DNA from: Bacteriovoracaceae bacterium
Lineage (GTDB): Bacteria > Bdellovibrionota > Bacteriovoracia > Bacteriovoracales > Bacteriovoracaceae
Length of the DNA: 13,367 bases
Assembly (NCBI GenBank): GCA_041586955.1
Contig: JBFGZE010000086.1
Location: 1-13,367, forward strand
Reading direction: 5' to 3'
The position numbers and the translations under genes are program-made. The notes beneath the pieces were generated by a model. It was not told where the DNA came from and ran no database searches. It saw nothing but the letters and a program-made list of their open reading frames with translations. This document shows positions 1 through 7,813 of the stretch, piece by piece; position 1 is the stretch's first letter; every line of letters starts with the position of its first letter.

Positions 1-1524
1 TACGTCACAGACCAGAAAATAAAAACATCTATTGGATCAAGTAATATCCTTCTGAGTGGTGTATTGAAGGTGGTCAAAGTACTGATGACCAGAAAAGTTA
101 ACAAAGTTTTTAATAAAGCTTTAAAGAAAACATTAAGGAAAATATCAAACTCATTTGAATTTAACGAAGAACTAAGAAAACCTACTCCTGAATATTTAAA
201 GTATTCCGTTGATCAATTGAGTGATGATGACCTTCTTGCAACCATACTAAATATAGAAGAAAAGATTCATAAGCAAAATTTATCCAACGGGATTTTAGTG
301 GGTTCGGTACTGAGTAAGGATGATACCTCTACCTGGTATGAGGCCTATGGCCCTAATGGAACAGGTAATAAAGGGGAGGTCGTCGCAATCGAAGGGTATG
401 GTGACTCCGCAATTTGGAGCGGCACTTATTTGGCCTCTCAGGCGTTCAGATATTCTGTCATGAAAGATAAAGAAGCCCTGAAGAGCGTCAAAATGGCACT
501 TGGTGGTGTTGAACACCTTCTTGGAGTTAACGGCTTCACAGGGCTACTTTCAAGGGCCGCAGCTCCTATTAATAGTATGCTTGGTAAGTCTATTCAAAAA
601 AGCAAGTTTTATACAACTAGCACCTATATGGGAGAGCGCTGGGTAAATTATCATGGTAATCGTAACGGTATTTCTCGTGATCAATACACTGGTGTTATTT
701 TTGGCCTGAGCTTGGCCTATGATCACGTCGATGATCCTGCAGTAAAAAAGAAGGCGGCCTATTTAATAAAAATAATTATGGATTATATTATTGGGAATAA
801 TTGGCTTGTTTTTGAAGATCGTGGAGACTTAACAATTGCGAGAAGCATTTCAGGAAGAACAAGTTTTCCGACTCAATGGTTTATGATCAATTATCAGCGT
901 TTAAATATGTTAGTCATTGCCGATCATATCCACCCCGGCAGATATGAAAAAGAATTAGAAAAATACAGTAAACTTTCAGAAACCGCTGAATTCTTTTTGT
1001 ACTTTTCCTCGATGGATAATCATCATGGTTATTATAAATTTAATCTCTTTAATACAAGTATCTATAATTACTTTAGGTTAGAAAAAAATCAAAAAAGAAG
1101 AAAAGATATAAAGAGCGCTTATGATATGGTTAATACTCATATCGGGCACCATGACAATTCTTATTTCAGTCTTATTCAGTATAGTTTTGCTCCAAAAGAG
1201 GTATCACTAGAAAAGCGACAACGAATCAAAACAAATATTTTTAGACTATTGCAACGAGCTCATCGATATATTTCGATTCCTGGTGCTGATTATACTGATA
1301 TTGAGTACATCACAGTTCCGGGACGGCATTCAGGCGATGAGGATGTCAGGATTTCAAAATATCCACTCGATGTGAGACAAAGGAATGGTTCGGGCAATTT
1401 CATTTGGCAAAGAACTCCTTATGAAGTTGGCAAACCATTTAGTGGTAGAAATATTAAGAGAGAGACTCCGGGGATTGATATTACTCTCATTTACTGGATG
1501 GGACGCTTTCACAAACTTTTCTAA
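1..1524 (+). CDS. Uncharacterised protein, 5'-truncated; probable all-helical (alpha/alpha)-barrel, glycosidase-like C-terminal region
   Basis: Frame 1 is open from base 1 (YVTDQKIKTSIGSSNILLSGV precedes the TTG at 64), so the true start is probably upstream of the window. Motif-like blocks: GDSAIWSGTYLASQAFRY, GLLSR, SRDQYTG and C-terminal PGIDITLIYWMGRF. The fold assignment is inference. Confidence 0.6.
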   Translation, partial: YVTDQKIKTSIGSSNILLSGVLKVVKVLMTRKVNKVFNKALKKTLRKISNSFEFNEELRKPTPEYLKYSVDQLSDDDLLATILNIEEKIHKQNLSNGILVGSVLSKDDTSTWYEAYGPNGTGNKGEVVAIEGYGDSAIWSGTYLASQAFRYSVMKDKEALKSVKMALGGVEHLLGVNGFTGLLSRAAAPINSMLGKSIQKSKFYTTSTYMGERWVNYHGNRNGISRDQYTGVIFGLSLAYDHVDDPAVKKKAAYLIKIIMDYIIGNNWLVFEDRGDLTIARSISGRTSFPTQWFMINYQRLNMLVIADHIHPGRYEKELEKYSKLSETAEFFLYFSSMDNHHGYYKFNLFNTSIYNYFRLEKNQKRRKDIKSAYDMVNTHIGHHDNSYFSLIQYSFAPKEVSLEKRQRIKTNIFRLLQRAHRYISIPGADYTDIEYITVPGRHSGDEDVRISKYPLDVRQRNGSGNFIWQRTPYEVGKPFSGRNIKRETPGIDITLIYWMGRFHKLF

Positions 1525-1606: not shown

Positions 1607-1659
1607 TTGAATAAAGTTTAAAGCTTCCTTAGAGTTATTATTATAAATAATAAAAGGAG
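1607..1659 (+). promoter_or_regulatory. Putative sigma70-type promoter and Shine-Dalgarno sequence of the Trp-rich gene
   Basis: TTGAAT (1607-1612), 17-bp spacer, TAGAGT (1630-1635). SD AAGGAG at 1654-1659, 6 nt before the second ATG (1666). Confidence 0.45.
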
Positions 1660-1662
1660 TAA

Positions 1663-1923
1663 ATGATGGAAAGTAATTGGACAGCTCAAGTAAAAGTAAA
1701 GTGGCTTGGAAACAACACACCCGAAGATTGGTCTTGGTTAAAAGATTGGTCAGAAGTTAAATGGGCCTGGTCGACAATGGGTGAATGGGATATGACGCTT
1801 TGGTTAAATGTAAACAATCCGAATGAACTAGAAGAATTTGTAACAAATAAACTTCGTTCAAAAGATTGGGTTTCAGACACTTGGTCGACCTGGGTTAAAG
1901 ATGTTTGGCATCAAGCGGCCTAA
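1663..1923 (+). CDS. Stand-alone Lrp/AsnC ligand-binding (RAM) domain protein, tryptophan-rich
   Basis: The pattern L..WSEVKWAWSTMGEWDMTLWLNVNNPNELEEFV..KL....WVSDT.S fits the AsnC C-terminal pattern (L...peV......tG.yD....v...d...l..f....l....gV..t.t). No HTH. Strong SD; SD spacing favours the ATG at 1666 as start. Confidence 0.8.
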   Translation: MMESNWTAQVKVKWLGNNTPEDWSWLKDWSEVKWAWSTMGEWDMTLWLNVNNPNELEEFVTNKLRSKDWVSDTWSTWVKDVWHQAA

Positions 1924-2313: not shown

Positions 2314-3972
2314 CTAGATAATATTCTTGGCGAATTTTTCCATGACTTTCACCAAAGCGGGTAATTTTCGTTTGGCATATTGAATACACGTTTGGCCATT
2401 AGGGTCTTTATCATTGGGGTTGGCACCATTTTTTAAAAGAGCTATGGCCGAGGCGATGTCTCCACGTTGAATCGCCAAATGTAGATAGGTGCGCTCTTTA
2501 TAGCGGTTTTGAATACGGGCGCCTGCTTTCACTAGAAACTCGATAGCGGGAGGGTGACCCCCGAGTACCGCTTCGAGTAGAGGTTCTCTTTTTTCATCAT
2601 CTTTATCGTGAATCTTTGCTCCCTTGGCGAGGAGGATTTCGCAAATTTTTACATGGCCATTTTTTGCAGCGTAATGGAGTGCTGTTTTACCATCGGGGCT
2701 TTTGAGTTTTAAGTCGCCACCCTTTTCTAAGAGCGCCTTAATAATTTCTTCATTACCTTGTGTGGCATAAATCATTAAAGGGGTTATTCCATGTGCCGTT
2801 CGGCGGTTGACATCATCGCTTTCCATTTGTTCGATCACTTCAAGGAATGACTTTTTCATTATGTTTTTATGAGATTGACTATTTGTGCCCCCCCCTGAAC
2901 CTTTCACCCGAATAATATCTCCCGACGTATCTTCATATTTTCCTTTTAGATGATAAATCTGATCTTTAATTTCTTCAGGCCCTAAACCTTTAATCAGATT
3001 TTTTTTGGCGAGTATCGCCTGCGCGGGGTGGCCTTCTGTCAGGAGGACTTCATCATGATAGATTTCTCTATTTTCTGTAATTAAGGAACCAATGTTAAAA
3101 TGTTCATCTAGAGTTTGATTTAGCGCTGATTCAAATTCATTGAGGGGGTCATTGGATTGGGCGGTATCTTTAGTATACTCGACAATAATATCGGGTTCAG
3201 CACAGATCGTCTCTGGGGATTCAAGCCATGTGCGAACCTTTTCTGCCATTTCCAAGATGGAGCCTTTTTTAAATGGCTTGATAAGGGCATCAAGGACGAG
3301 GGTACTACGCTCAACAATTCGCTGGCCTTCTTCTTTTTTAAGGTATTGGCTGGTGATAATAAGCGGTATATTTTTATTAAGGATATTATCTTCACTTTCA
3401 ATATATTGAATGATTGAATCACTCGTTTGGTTGACTCCGAGGATGACGTCGAGAAAGCCACACAAGAAGGGGACATGCTTGAGAAGATATTCAGCTTGCT
3501 CCGAAGTTTTACAAGTATAGAGACGGTAATTACTGTGGTGGGTATCAAATTTAGCAAATGCGAGGATATCGGGATCATCGTCGACAATCAGGATATTCTT
3601 TAAGGGTGATCCCTGGATACTATTGAGGATCTGAGCTTTTGAAATAGGTTTTTTTAAGGTATCAACAATTTGAATACCCTTCTTTTTTAATTTTATTCCA
3701 TAATCCGTTTGCATATGAGCGGACATGACGATGACTGGAGGGGACGAAGGCATTTGCTTTAATTTGCTAAGCACCTTTTCGCTGGTGAGGTTTTTACCCA
3801 TGACAATATCAAGAAAAACACACAGAAATTGGTTTTCATCCAATTGTTTTATGGCCTCTTCAGGATTCTTCGCCGCAACCATTTCATAGGAGTGACCACT
3901 AATTGCAATATTAAAAAAGTTGAGAATATCTTGGTCATCATCTACAACCAAAATTTTTGGTAACATTTTCAA
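2314..3972 (-). CDS. Response regulator with two receiver domains and about five C-terminal ankyrin repeats
   Basis: REC1: ILVVDDD..FLD55..MSA..KP. REC2: ILIVDDD..FLD175..TS..KP. Ankyrin starts GITPLM, GKTALHYAAKNGH, REPLLEA, RTYLHLA and GQTCI are spaced 32-33 aa apart. An AGGA SD lies 7 nt before the TTG; ATG at 3966 is an alternative start. Confidence 0.9.
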   Translation of the reverse strand: MKMLPKILVVDDDQDILNFFNIAISGHSYEMVAAKNPEEAIKQLDENQFLCVFLDIVMGKNLTSEKVLSKLKQMPSSPPVIVMSAHMQTDYGIKLKKKGIQIVDTLKKPISKAQILNSIQGSPLKNILIVDDDPDILAFAKFDTHHSNYRLYTCKTSEQAEYLLKHVPFLCGFLDVILGVNQTSDSIIQYIESEDNILNKNIPLIITSQYLKKEEGQRIVERSTLVLDALIKPFKKGSILEMAEKVRTWLESPETICAEPDIIVEYTKDTAQSNDPLNEFESALNQTLDEHFNIGSLITENREIYHDEVLLTEGHPAQAILAKKNLIKGLGPEEIKDQIYHLKGKYEDTSGDIIRVKGSGGGTNSQSHKNIMKKSFLEVIEQMESDDVNRRTAHGITPLMIYATQGNEEIIKALLEKGGDLKLKSPDGKTALHYAAKNGHVKICEILLAKGAKIHDKDDEKREPLLEAVLGGHPPAIEFLVKAGARIQNRYKERTYLHLAIQRGDIASAIALLKNGANPNDKDPNGQTCIQYAKRKLPALVKVMEKFAKNII

Positions 3973-3981
3973 GACATCTTC

Positions 3982-4284
3982 CTATTCAAAAGTTATTTGT
4001 AATGTATTCATGAATTGCTGGTATTCAGTAATTAAGTTTATCATATCATCTTCTTTCTGTTGCATAGCTGCAACTTCTAGCTTGGTCCCTAATTCTGATA
4101 AGTGACTAAGGCCATAGCTACCAGCATTACCTGCCAATTTATGCGCAATGGTTTCGATAATCTTAAAATCCTTAATTGATAAGGCCTCGCTTAGTTGAAT
4201 TAAATCTTTTCGGCGATTATCCAAAAACATGGGCATAATTTCTTCAAGGTCTTTATCAATACGAATCATATTTTGATCAGACAT
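3982..4284 (-). CDS. Stand-alone Hpt (histidine phosphotransfer) protein
   Basis: 100 aa helical protein with the Hpt signature AH48KLAGNAGSYG..LS.LG..LE. SD GGAGG. 9-bp gap to the REC-REC-ankyrin gene. Confidence 0.9.
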   Translation of the reverse strand: MSDQNMIRIDKDLEEIMPMFLDNRRKDLIQLSEALSIKDFKIIETIAHKLAGNAGSYGLSHLSELGTKLEVAAMQQKEDDMINLITEYQQFMNTLQITFE

Positions 4285-4394: not shown

Positions 4395-5078
4395 GTGAAA
4401 AAAGTATTATTAGTTGATGATGATCTTGATATTCATAATATTATCAAGCATGCATTGCAGGGGGAATATAACGTCCTCGCTGCAGAGAACCTCAGTCAGG
4501 GCGCTCAGGTAATTTTGGAGCATGAAATTGATTTGATTGTTTTAGATGAAGGATTACCTGATGGTTCGGGTACAGCTTTCTGCTATAAACTGAAGAATGA
4601 AATGGGTAGGAAAAGAATTCCTATTCTCATGTTGACTAAACGGCAAGAGTTAAAAGATAAGATTATGGCCTTCAATTCAGGTGCCGATGATTATATTGTT
4701 AAGCCATTTGAGCCATTAGAGCTTTTAGCGCGCGTAAATGCCCGTCTAAGGGATATAGAAGAGCAAAATGACAACCTCCATTACTATGGAGATTTGGAAT
4801 TAGACCTAACTTTGCAACGTTTATCGATTCGCAAAGGCACCGAAGAAATACCTGTTGAAATGACCCCTATTGAATTTAAAATCCTCTACCAATTGACGTT
4901 AAGAGACAGTCGGGTGATGAGTCGTGAAGATATTCTTAATACCGTATGGGGAAAAAATTCTGTGGTTTCCGATCGTACCGTTGATCAACATATTTCTAAA
5001 ATTCGCAAGAAATTGGGGGCATCGAATTATACGATTAAATCGAGTCACGGTCAGGGCTATTTGCTAATTAAAGAGTAA
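4395..5078 (+). CDS. OmpR/PhoB-family DNA-binding response regulator
   Basis: REC domain (LLVDDD, LIVLDEGLPDG, MLT, GADDYIVKPF) plus winged helix (MTPIEFKIL, SREDIL..VWG, DRTVDQHISKIRKKL, GQGY). GTG start. Confidence 0.95.
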   Translation: MKKVLLVDDDLDIHNIIKHALQGEYNVLAAENLSQGAQVILEHEIDLIVLDEGLPDGSGTAFCYKLKNEMGRKRIPILMLTKRQELKDKIMAFNSGADDYIVKPFEPLELLARVNARLRDIEEQNDNLHYYGDLELDLTLQRLSIRKGTEEIPVEMTPIEFKILYQLTLRDSRVMSREDILNTVWGKNSVVSDRTVDQHISKIRKKLGASNYTIKSSHGQGYLLIKE

Positions 5079-6446
5079 TTGATGAAAACTCAGCATGCGC
5101 TATTTATTTGCCACCAGCCTTTATTACAAGATTTATTTTCTTTAAATCTCAAATGGTATCTTGGATTTGAAGTCTGCTTATGTGCCGACCCGGTTCAAGC
5201 GGATAGTTTTTACCAAAAGCGTAATTGGGACCTGGTGATCTCTCTGGACCGGATTGTTGGTCGGGATATGGGCAAGGCCATTGATGAATGGCGGAGAGTA
5301 AAAGCAAGCGATCATCCTATTTTCATTCTGGGGAAGAATTCAATTCTCTCTGATACGAGTGATATTATTACTATTGAAGGTAATCTCAATATTAAAAACT
5401 TTCTCCAAGTTATTGCCAAAGAGATGAAGGTTACGGCCAGGGAAATGGCACAACGTAAGACCAGTGAATTTGTCTCATTTCCTTTGCGTTTAATTAAGGC
5501 CAATAACCCCTTAACGGTGACACTTTTTATCCGCACTAATAAAGAGGGACAAACGGCCGAATATGCACCAATTGGCATGCCGGGACAAATTTTGGGTAGC
5601 AAAATAGAGCAATATAATAAACTAGGAATCGGTGAGATCTATATTCAATCTAATGATCGTTTATCTTTGGTCAATTCTCTCTCTACTAATATTCTACAAA
5701 CTTTAAAAAACCGCTCTGGTGCTTCAACGGCTGATCAATTGGGAGCCGCCGAATTAGGTTTTGAATTATTAGCGGAAAACTTAACTCAAGATGGCGCTTT
5801 AAAAAAAGAAATTATGGCATTGTCGCAAGAGTGCCTCGAGACTATTGATGAGATCGTTGAAGAAGTTCAAAGTTTAGGTGAATTAATGCGAGGGCTTAAG
5901 GCCCAACAAAGTGGAAACCTTTATTCTCATAGTATCTTTTGCTCCTTTGTGGCAACTAAGACTCTTGATCATCTGGAATGGGGCGCCAGGGAGCATAAAA
6001 ATATTTTAAATTTTGTCCTTTTTTATCATGACATTTTTCTTGCGCCTCTTTATGACCGGTTTCCGGACGTCGAAGTTGAGCATGAATTATTATTTCACCC
6101 GGGACTAACGGCCGAAGATAAAGAGTTAGTGATGAACCATGCCCTTTTAGCTGCCGAGGCCTTAAAGAAATACCCAAGGGCGCCTATCGGGGCGAGTAGT
6201 TTAATTCTCCAGCACCATGGTATGAGCGGTGGAGTTGGTGTCGCCTTAGAGTATAAAGACGATCTCTCTCCCTTGGCCAAAGTAACTTTAGTCTGTCATA
6301 TGGCCGTTGATTTATGGATGCAAAATCGTTCTAAACCAAAGAAGGAGCTGATGGTGATGATTTGCGGAGAGTTAAAAAAGACTTTCCCGCGGGCGACTTA
6401 TCGCGAAATAATTAAGGCCTTCTCTCAAGTTGATCTTGGTTCTTAA
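5079..6446 (+). CDS. Pseudo-receiver plus degenerate HD-GYP-like (HD-domain) protein
   Basis: N-terminal REC-like pattern without the acidic pocket (FICHQ..WDLVISL..PIFILG). C-terminal YSHS, FYHDI, MNH and QHHGMSGGVGV. It abuts the OmpR stop codon (TAA TTG ATG); ATG at 5082 is a possible start. Confidence 0.75.
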   Translation: MMKTQHALFICHQPLLQDLFSLNLKWYLGFEVCLCADPVQADSFYQKRNWDLVISLDRIVGRDMGKAIDEWRRVKASDHPIFILGKNSILSDTSDIITIEGNLNIKNFLQVIAKEMKVTAREMAQRKTSEFVSFPLRLIKANNPLTVTLFIRTNKEGQTAEYAPIGMPGQILGSKIEQYNKLGIGEIYIQSNDRLSLVNSLSTNILQTLKNRSGASTADQLGAAELGFELLAENLTQDGALKKEIMALSQECLETIDEIVEEVQSLGELMRGLKAQQSGNLYSHSIFCSFVATKTLDHLEWGAREHKNILNFVLFYHDIFLAPLYDRFPDVEVEHELLFHPGLTAEDKELVMNHALLAAEALKKYPRAPIGASSLILQHHGMSGGVGVALEYKDDLSPLAKVTLVCHMAVDLWMQNRSKPKKELMVMICGELKKTFPRATYREIIKAFSQVDLGS

Positions 6447-6454
6447 ATATCTAT

Positions 6455-7813
6455 TTATTTAATTAATTTTTTAAGTGCCAGCCAAGTTTCTTTAAAGTTT
6501 GCAGAGGTATAACCTTCCGGTAGATTATTAATAGAGGTTTTAAAACCTTGAATAGTTAAGCCTTCTAATAATAATTGATCCACCAAGTACCTATTTAGGA
6601 TAAAAAGACAACTGACAGGTGTCAGGCGGGCCGCCTGAACCATTCCTGGGAAGCCTTTGCCATCAGGCCTTTCATGATGCTCTTTAATAATAAATTCGAC
6701 ATCAGTAAAGCCAGTAAAATAGTGTGCCATTTGAGATGAGACTGTAGGGTGATTGAGAAATTCTTGTTTTTTATCATCTGAAATGGCGGCAAAAAGCGGG
6801 TCCATTGTATTGCTAATCATTAATAATTCATCATCTCGTATCATAATATCGTGAAGGATACTCGCGAGTCCCAACTTTTTACGGGTCGGGTCGCTATTCC
6901 ACTCTAGTTTTTGGCAGACCAATTCGCAAATATAAAAAAGTAAAAGGGCCTGCTCGGAATGATCTCTATTATCAAATTTAAAATTTTTGCAAAGGTCATT
7001 AAAACTCTTCATGGTTTTTGAGACAGCATTCACCTTTCCTACAAACTCCACAATGATATCGCACAGGTCATCACTGACTCCAATATCTTGGATATATTCT
7101 TGAATACTGGAAAGGAAAATTAATTGTGCTGAAATCGCCTGTTTCGTGTCAATATTTGGACTATCAAGTATACTGCGCGCCTTATCGATAGAGGACTCGA
7201 TAAAAGATAAGCGTTCGCTTCTTTCCATGTAGAGGAATCGGACATTTCTTTTGATCAGTTGATGGAGAGTGGAGAAATGGTATTTCTTATTTTTTGTAAT
7301 AGCTTTGACAAATTGGCCGGGAATGACTTCCATAAAAGCGTTAAAGGGGACGGAGTTAAATAATTTAAAATTGCGTAGGCGGATGGGGAGAAATTCATCC
7401 TTTTGGAGATCGACGATATCTGAACTAAAATTATTATTTTGGGTCCAGATCGCAGCATTTTTTAATTGTTCTTCAAAATGAATTTGTTCGATGGGTCTGA
7501 GTATTGTATTGACAAAGTCGAACTCACTACAAAAATCTTGGTCCACATAATCCGTAAGAGAGTCGTCCTTGCCGATAAAAAGAATGGGTCTCTCACCAAA
7601 TTTTTCCAAAATAGTTTTGGCAAATTCGGTGGCATGATCGGTTTTAAGCCCGGCCTCAATAATAATCAAGCAGATATTGCCTTGTACGGTGAGAGTATTG
7701 AGAGCGTCGGTGCCTTTGATTGTACAAATAAGGTCCCATTGAGGGTGTGGTTTAAATAATTCCCGTATATCACGCCAGAAATCTTTTTGGTCTGAGACCA
7801 AAAGTGTCTTCAT
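6455..7813 (-). CDS. Receiver-like plus HD-GYP-like domain protein
   Basis: N-terminal MKTLLVSDQ..LIIIE..PILFIG..RP (Glu at the phosphoacceptor position). C-terminal ILHDI, LNHP and EHHERPDGKGFP. SD AAAGGA. Confidence 0.8.
   Translation of the reverse strand: MKTLLVSDQKDFWRDIRELFKPHPQWDLICTIKGTDALNTLTVQGNICLIIIEAGLKTDHATEFAKTILEKFGERPILFIGKDDSLTDYVDQDFCSEFDFVNTILRPIEQIHFEEQLKNAAIWTQNNNFSSDIVDLQKDEFLPIRLRNFKLFNSVPFNAFMEVIPGQFVKAITKNKKYHFSTLHQLIKRNVRFLYMERSERLSFIESSIDKARSILDSPNIDTKQAISAQLIFLSSIQEYIQDIGVSDDLCDIIVEFVGKVNAVSKTMKSFNDLCKNFKFDNRDHSEQALLLFYICELVCQKLEWNSDPTRKKLGLASILHDIMIRDDELLMISNTMDPLFAAISDDKKQEFLNHPTVSSQMAHYFTGFTDVEFIIKEHHERPDGKGFPGMVQAARLTPVSCLFILNRYLVDQLLLEGLTIQGFKTSINNLPEGYTSANFKETWLALKKLIK

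Follow-up and report, generated by a model that had tools for sequence, protein, structure and literature searches.

A tryptophan-rich stand-alone Lrp/AsnC ligand-binding (RAM) domain in a Bacteriovoracaceae bacterium and its relatives

The ligand-binding (RAM) domain of Lrp/AsnC regulators also occurs as a free-standing protein, as in SraA of T. thermophilus, a tryptophan (Trp)-responsive stand-alone RAM inhibitor of TrpD that is not known to be rich in Trp itself. Like SraA, the protein described here has the fold of a free-standing RAM domain and may be linked to Trp, but it differs in that TrpD scored above the cut-off in only 3 of 15 genomes carrying its family, the genome of the source organism not being one of them. 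The closest solved structures are P. horikoshii DM1 (2e1a) and PHS023 (2cvi), S. tokodaii STS042 (2zbc) and T. thermophilus TTHA0845 (2djw), which resemble it in size, in lacking a helix-turn-helix (HTH), in fold and in the G-x-x-D plus T-x-T/S ligand grip; unlike them, it belongs to a family set apart by ~23% identity, 10-15% Trp, almost no Tyr and a shortened first helix, which occurs in predators, in Legionella and chlamydiae, and in a giant-virus bin. Also in contrast to the DM1-type demi-FFRPs, the Trp-rich family often occurs in genomes in which full-length Lrp was not found. Full-length Lrp/AsnC proteins (FL11, Grp, DARP, NMB0573) have the same C-terminal domain and ligand-backbone contacts, together with a DNA-binding domain that is absent here. 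The residues holding the ligand backbone are G99, D102, T132 and T134 in Grp (PMC2504300) and G108, D111, T141 and T143 in DARP (PMC13628549); by hand mapping, the side-chain pocket has S37, P53 and V60 in our protein where DARP has Ile, Leu and Ile.

Two further systems offer partial parallels. The WWW motif of Chlamydia YtgCR sets the level of a regulator through Trp-codon control (PMC7755916); synthesis of the Trp-rich protein would likewise hinge on charged tRNA-Trp, but its Trp residues are scattered across a folded domain, and the family gene is not consistently co-transcribed with any gene downstream. NirDL (4czc) and coproheme decarboxylase show the two-domain packing seen in the model of a tandem relative, but are at most 13% identical to it, and the relative has neither HTH parts nor a conserved haem ligand.

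The gene lies at 1663-1923 (+) of the window, that is, of the whole 13,367-nt stretch of DNA analysed, and was recognised from Pfam, predicted fold and composition. Read from its first ATG the product has 86 aa; however, the Shine-Dalgarno (SD) sequence AAGGAG at 1654-1659 (+) leaves 3 nt to ATG 1663 and 6 nt to ATG 1666, a spacing that makes the latter probably the start, giving 85 aa, as in the public gene call for the same protein (P0002). This 85-aa product has a computed mass of 10.3 kDa, a net charge of -5 and a pI of 4.6. The gene's own SD had been pointed out in the first-pass annotation and recurs in the family, with an SD-like motif upstream of 48 of the 53 family genes examined. The 3' hairpin noted there is likewise present, as a 48-nt stem-loop at 1937-1984 (no strand assigned) before the convergent ORF at 2314-3972; its fold energy of -19.1 kcal/mol is given without a shuffle control, it has no U-tract, and a scan for intrinsic terminators returned 0 sites, leaving it unscored as a terminator. 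Candidate sigma-70-type promoter sites at 1607-1644 (+), namely TTGAAT-17-TAGAGT picked by eye and TTTAAA-16-TATTAT from a scan, are at chance level (3 found against 2.9 expected). Elsewhere in the window, the ORF at 64-1524 (+) encodes an uncharacterised 486-aa protein that has no Pfam or NCBIfam family; the Atlas clusters closest to it (score 0.95-0.96) consist of unnamed proteins from Acidobacteriota and Bacteroidota. A signalling cluster at 2314-3972 (-), 3982-4284 (-), 4395-5078 (+) and 5079-7813 comprises a two-receiver protein with ankyrin repeats, an Hpt protein, a response regulator (recognised from its sequence) and a convergent pair of proteins, of which one has an HD-like domain.

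Translation reproduces every detail of the composition first reported for the protein: 13 Trp in 86 aa (positions 6, 14, 23, 25, 29, 34, 36, 42, 47, 69, 74, 77 and 82), zero Tyr, Ile and Cys, and a single Phe. At a Trp frequency of 1.3%, the binomial probability of at least 13 Trp is ~1e-10; the mean over the 2,511 ORFs of at least 150 aa in the source genome is 1.09%. The protein ranks first in Trp among 3,335 non-overlapping ORFs of that genome, at 15.1% against 7.7% for the runner-up, two overlapping shadow frames of higher Trp elsewhere having been removed from this ranking as overlaps. Its computed molar absorbance is 71,500 per chain, and by simple arithmetic a chain making up 1% of cell protein would hold ~12% of the proteome's Trp.

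The protein is a member of the RAM domain family and no Lrp transcription factor. It scores 33.5 bits against PF01037 (cut-off 25) and matches no NCBIfam family, and its AlphaFold model (pLDDT 81) follows the order beta-alpha-beta-beta-alpha-beta with a short first helix. The best Foldseek matches are DM1 (2e1a, at the top with TM 0.74/0.83), PHS023, NMB0573, TTHA0845 and STS042, and the structural Z to Lrp/AsnC chains runs from 10 to 11.4; a fold search of BFVD returned nothing at E <=0.001. The family profile in turn finds archaeal stand-alone RAM proteins at E ~1e-8 and FL11 next. Both the Pfam score and the predicted fold thus bear out the stand-alone RAM assignment with which the gene was first described, and the HTH said to be missing is indeed absent from the ORF. 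The same holds for the 52 complete family loci (one partial locus of the 53 being left out), whose ORFs run to 83-94 aa, contain 11-15 Trp and lack an HTH; a PF13404 match was absent from the source genome, which is 88% complete.

Dimer geometry was seen only through the model of a tandem relative, P0027, one of the natural tandem forms of the family (P0023, P0025 and P0027). In this model (pTM 0.76) both domains align to the two-RAM chain NirDL (Z 13.4, rmsd 2.7, 151 residues), from which the usual RAM dimer packing is predicted. The top Foldseek match of the tandem model, ovorubin, was read as a shared barrel only, and a 209-aa open frame in G417 was rejected as a fusion, its extra length being an upstream run without a stop.

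Searches for relatives gave 288 sequences, of which 268 passed a filter of 60 bits and 70-200 aa (the 20 removed being fragments and ordinary RAM proteins) and 265 were unique. These contain 6-17% Trp (median 11.4%, a share biased upward by the Trp-weighted profiles that collected the members) and 0.5% Tyr. Of the 53 genome loci with close relatives, 49 bear Bdellovibrionota-group titles, and among 301 genomes of the source's phylum 53 carry the gene, each as one copy, across nine families, that of the source included. A sample of 150 genomes from the phylum to which a Parachlamydiales locus belongs had 4 with strong scores (one more genome going unscored), and 16 named Legionella species appear among the matches listed, a count of species named in matches that implies no absence from L. 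pneumophila, which is not named there. Tandem P0027 is encoded on a contig (24% GC) from a giant-virus bin; scans of viral contigs for the family turned up no other, and a scan for the neighbouring ATP-citrate lyase likewise led to this contig alone; plasmid and phage collections held no family match. On that contig (L055:72-8617) the tandem RAM gene lies among genes for a glycosyltransferase, a UDP-glucose dehydrogenase, a pyridine nucleotide-disulphide oxidoreductase and a single-chain ATP-citrate lyase, all without upstream SD motifs, its viral origin resting on the bin label and locus features.

A quick-method tree of 87 columns, from which we read no transfer donor or direction, sets the family apart from five ordinary RAM proteins and groups its members into Legionella, chlamydial/KWKxG, tandem and Bacteriovoracia forms, half of the forks being open. 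The titled rows closest to the source copy in it belong to the Bdellovibrionota group, in keeping with a source that is likely a Bacteriovoracaceae predator. One locus titled Flavobacteriaceae (L002) carries a family gene that groups with the Bacteriovoracaceae copies, possibly through mis-binning or transfer. The literature covered, which took in few subscription journals, contained no description of a Trp-rich variant and none of SraA.

What the family has kept speaks to what it may do. The ligand contacts of Grp and DARP (PMC2504300; PMC13628549), transferred by hand through the FL11 alignment, fall on G40, D43, T73 and S75: the first two in G-E-W-D (codons 40-43; 1780-1791, +), the loop by which Lrp-family structures hold the alpha-amino and carboxyl groups, and the last two in T-W-S (codons 73-75; 1879-1887, +), which supplies the T-x-T/S carboxylate grip. 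Across 257 aligned single-domain members these positions are kept in 98% (G40), 97% (D43), 96% (T73) and 97% (S/T75), the pocket surroundings S37, T38, P53 and V60 in 89-93%, and the surface residues K13, E57, K79 and P53 in 94%, 93%, 86% and 91%; outside the Lrp grip no conserved His, Cys or catalytic residue was found in the same alignment. No His is conserved across clades either, as a haem ligand of Ahb/NirDL-type tetrapyrrole enzymes would be.

The Trp positions of the first-pass annotation are in good part conserved among relatives: W6, W42, W69 and W77 stand at 95-98% and W29 and W36 at 83-85% of the 257 members. Five (W6, W36, W42, W69, W77) are common to all four motif-defined clades (114, 20, 18 and 105 sequences), and the extra Trp sites are clade-specific; each clade nonetheless stays at 10-14% Trp, with 0.2-0.6% Tyr against 3.4% in ten ordinary RAM-bearing proteins. 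Members of the Legionella clade combine 7.0% Met with 10.2% Trp. Against FL11, W29, W36, W42 and W77 align with Tyr, Tyr, Tyr and Ile, and W69 replaces a Gly; none of the mapped side-chain pocket residues is replaced by Trp in the source copy, and positions 9 and 11 of strand 1, occupied by Phe and Leu in FL11, carry polar residues in the largest clade, with W34, W36 and W47 adjacent. Because the old sensor site is intact and aromatic positions have turned to Trp throughout, we infer selection on the number of Trp residues. The suggestion of a repurposed function is only half right, the ancestral amino-acid grip being among the best-kept features of the family.

The surroundings of the gene suggest little in the way of a fixed partner. 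Neighbours are not conserved, the commonest clusters occurring at no more than 12 of 54 loci, and in other families the 42 genes immediately adjacent show no relation to one another; no redox genes recur among the neighbours. We read as local synteny a divergent OPT peptide transporter cluster that recurs at 12 of 54 loci, chiefly within one subclade, prpB/prpC/prpD beside 5 of 13 true Legionella-type loci, and MFS transporters next to the gene in genome family f14. A Trp attenuator or leader ORF was also set aside, since no co-oriented trp-related gene lies downstream, the next gene is convergent and neighbours vary. At one locus (L064:2662-10241, genome G030) the family gene lies amid genes for tryptophan dioxygenase (TDO), an FAD/kynurenine monooxygenase-like protein, kynureninase and a cyclase, a kynurenine-pathway neighbourhood found at that locus alone (1 of 66). 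Single copy, an own SD and unrelated neighbours are as expected if no fixed partner is needed.

Partner tests covered 61 genomes, 15 carriers and 46 non-carriers. Full-length Lrp is present in 9 of the carriers and was not found in the other six, which include the source genome (88% complete) and four at 98-100%; a link within genome family f1 did not hold (8/12 vs 12/25, p 0.32). A trpA match above the cut-off occurs in 3/15 carriers vs 2/46 non-carriers (p 0.09), and 12 of the 15 carriers have neither trpA nor trpD above the cut-off. In three genomes of family f3 (G038, G047, G055), TrpD-like genes above the cut-off occur without a trpA match. TDO looked promising at first, in 13/15 carriers vs 19/46 non-carriers, but the link faded when 301 genomes were counted (43/53 vs 172/248, p 0.10), and in genome family f15 only 1 of 7 carriers has the gene. 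On these co-occurrence counts, mixing with full-length FFRPs and inhibition of TrpD are excluded as general roles.

Upstream sequences offer leads to expression in a non-growing stage. Bdellovibrio has the attack-phase FliA consensus TTAAG-N16-CCGATA (PMC3627812), for which we scored upstream regions after CGATA boxes had been spotted in them by eye. A score of at least 8/11 was reached by 25 of 51 family loci and 10 of 187 neighbouring genes, in counts that treat related loci as independent though they are kin; at 9/11 the figures are 6/51 and 7/187, and a FliA-like -10 box precedes 28 family genes against a shuffle mean of 8.6. The motif is spread across many subclades and is missing upstream of the source copy. 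A held-out set from other families, in which one start was mis-picked and one locus had no upstream DNA, gave 7/26 vs 5/50 (p 0.09), or 5/26 vs 2/50 (p 0.04) at a stricter score, one copy being a perfect match to the consensus. For Legionella-type loci, two of 14 having been dropped (one without upstream DNA, one a weak match), the RpoS-like -10 CTATACT (PMC3923258) is matched at 6/7 in 7 of 12, against 3 of 40. In the source genome at large, a CCGATA-like box precedes 219 of the 1,164 genes that have an upstream gap, and 19 match the FliA consensus at 10-11/11; many of these look like lipoproteins or secreted proteins, which suggests a FliA-type attack-phase regulon there.

Our preferred explanation, held tentatively and as possible rather than probable, is that the protein is an amino-acid-gated RAM oligomer, selected for its number of Trp residues and made late in the growth cycle, that serves as a Trp gauge or reserve. 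The Trp-packed domain would form the predicted dimers, and an amino acid filling the kept dimer-dimer pocket would likely assemble them further. With many charged tRNA-Trp needed for synthesis, its accumulation would be confined to times of ample Trp. Once assembled, the ring would be stable, and when ligand is lost dimers would be released for turnover or signalling; the protein may be made for the non-growing, host- or prey-seeking stage. This reading draws on the kept grip (G40, D43, T73, S/T75) that matches the Grp and DARP contacts, on the clade-by-clade difference of extra Trp sites at 10-14% Trp with Tyr near absent, on the FliA-like and RpoS-like motifs of many relatives, on the 12 of 15 carriers without trpA or trpD above the cut-off, and on the NirDL-like packing of the tandem model together with a single-copy gene, its SD and unrelated neighbours. 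Two of the functions floated in the first-pass annotation, Trp storage and Trp-dependent translation, would agree with the way Trp sites turn over from clade to clade. Carried further, the idea becomes a partner-free, mobile "tryptophan capacitor", a ring derived from Lrp that would be made, assembled and broken down in response to amino-acid supply and would be wired into the infectious non-growing stage of unrelated prey- or host-dependent microbes (through FliA in Bdellovibrionota and RpoS in Legionella, and in chlamydiae and a giant virus), carrying Trp between hosts; this we consider rather unlikely. Several points count against the preferred reading. Legionella makes its own Trp, a Trp reserve is hard to make sense of in a giant virus, and carriers show no enrichment of auxotrophy (trpA in 3/15 vs 2/46). 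The source copy lacks the FliA-like motif and the held-out promoter test is weak, and several shared Trp sit at core Tyr, Ile or Val positions of FL11 and may be purely structural.

In a plainer account, also possible if doubtful, the protein is an ordinary free-standing amino-acid sensor regulating some widely present protein partner, its Trp serving a stable core and a partner surface rather than being selected for number. The stand-alone proteins DM1-3, STS042 and TvDM do respond to amino acids (PMC2995911), and the kept grip, the conserved K13, E57, K79 and P53, and the substitution of W29, W36, W42 and W77 for canonical hydrophobic residues all suit a sensor. Such an account leaves the turnover of extra Trp between clades and the near absence of Tyr unexplained, however, and with Lrp, TrpD and TDO not tracking the gene, the common partner would have to span Bdellovibrionota, Legionella, chlamydiae and the virus bin. 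That the protein mixes into full-length Lrp octamers as a demi-FFRP, inhibits TrpD as SraA does or regulates tryptophan dioxygenase seems very unlikely: the DM1-FL11 hetero-octamer is documented (PMC2995911), the closest solved structures are of the DM1 kind, Lrp is present in 9 of 15 carriers and one locus sits amid kynurenine-pathway genes, but Lrp was not found in six carriers, TrpD reaches only 3/15, the TDO association stands at p 0.10 with 1/7 in genome family f15, and that neighbourhood is 1 locus in 66.

Explanations that look to the chemistry of Trp itself fare variously. An abundant, very stable oxidant sink for an extracellular or entry stage, in which exposed Trp (and in Legionella Met too) would be sacrificed to reactive oxygen species, agrees with the stage-linked promoter motifs, with 7.0% Met beside 10.2% Trp in the Legionella clade, and with occurrence in amoeba-associated lineages and the giant-virus bin; we judge it unlikely, as a sink has no need of an amino-acid grip conserved at 96-98%, Tyr, Cys and His are scarce, and redox neighbours do not recur. 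Quite unlikely, too, is a new site lined by Trp for a non-amino-acid ligand (a nucleotide, a tetrapyrrole or an aromatic metabolite) or for chemistry, as in other dimeric alpha+beta barrels. The polar positions 9 and 11 beside W34, W36 and W47 in the largest clade would suit such a site, the tandem model is similar in fold to NirDL, coproheme decarboxylases and monooxygenases, and DM1 is reported to respond to 2-oxoglutarate as well (PMC2995911); yet no His, Cys or catalytic residue is conserved beyond the Lrp grip, barrel positions vary by clade, and single-domain searches rank Lrp/AsnC first. UV absorption and redox hole-hopping, both raised when the gene was first noticed, are highly improbable. 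A molar absorbance of 71,500 per chain is high, but a screen fails on arithmetic, since a chain amounting to 10% of cell protein would still take up only ~1% of light at 280 nm across 0.3 um (200 g/L protein assumed), and a hole-hopping wire would find no cofactor site to feed the chain, conserved cofactor ligands being absent from the 257 aligned members.

Stand-alone RAM proteins have few known jobs, and here a small, soluble, Trp-rich variant keeps the sensor pocket across predators, Legionella, chlamydiae and a giant-virus bin, spending the costliest amino acid in hosts mostly unable to make it. Should the protein prove to be a Trp gauge or store gated by ligand, it would represent a new way of managing an amino acid across a feast-famine life cycle.
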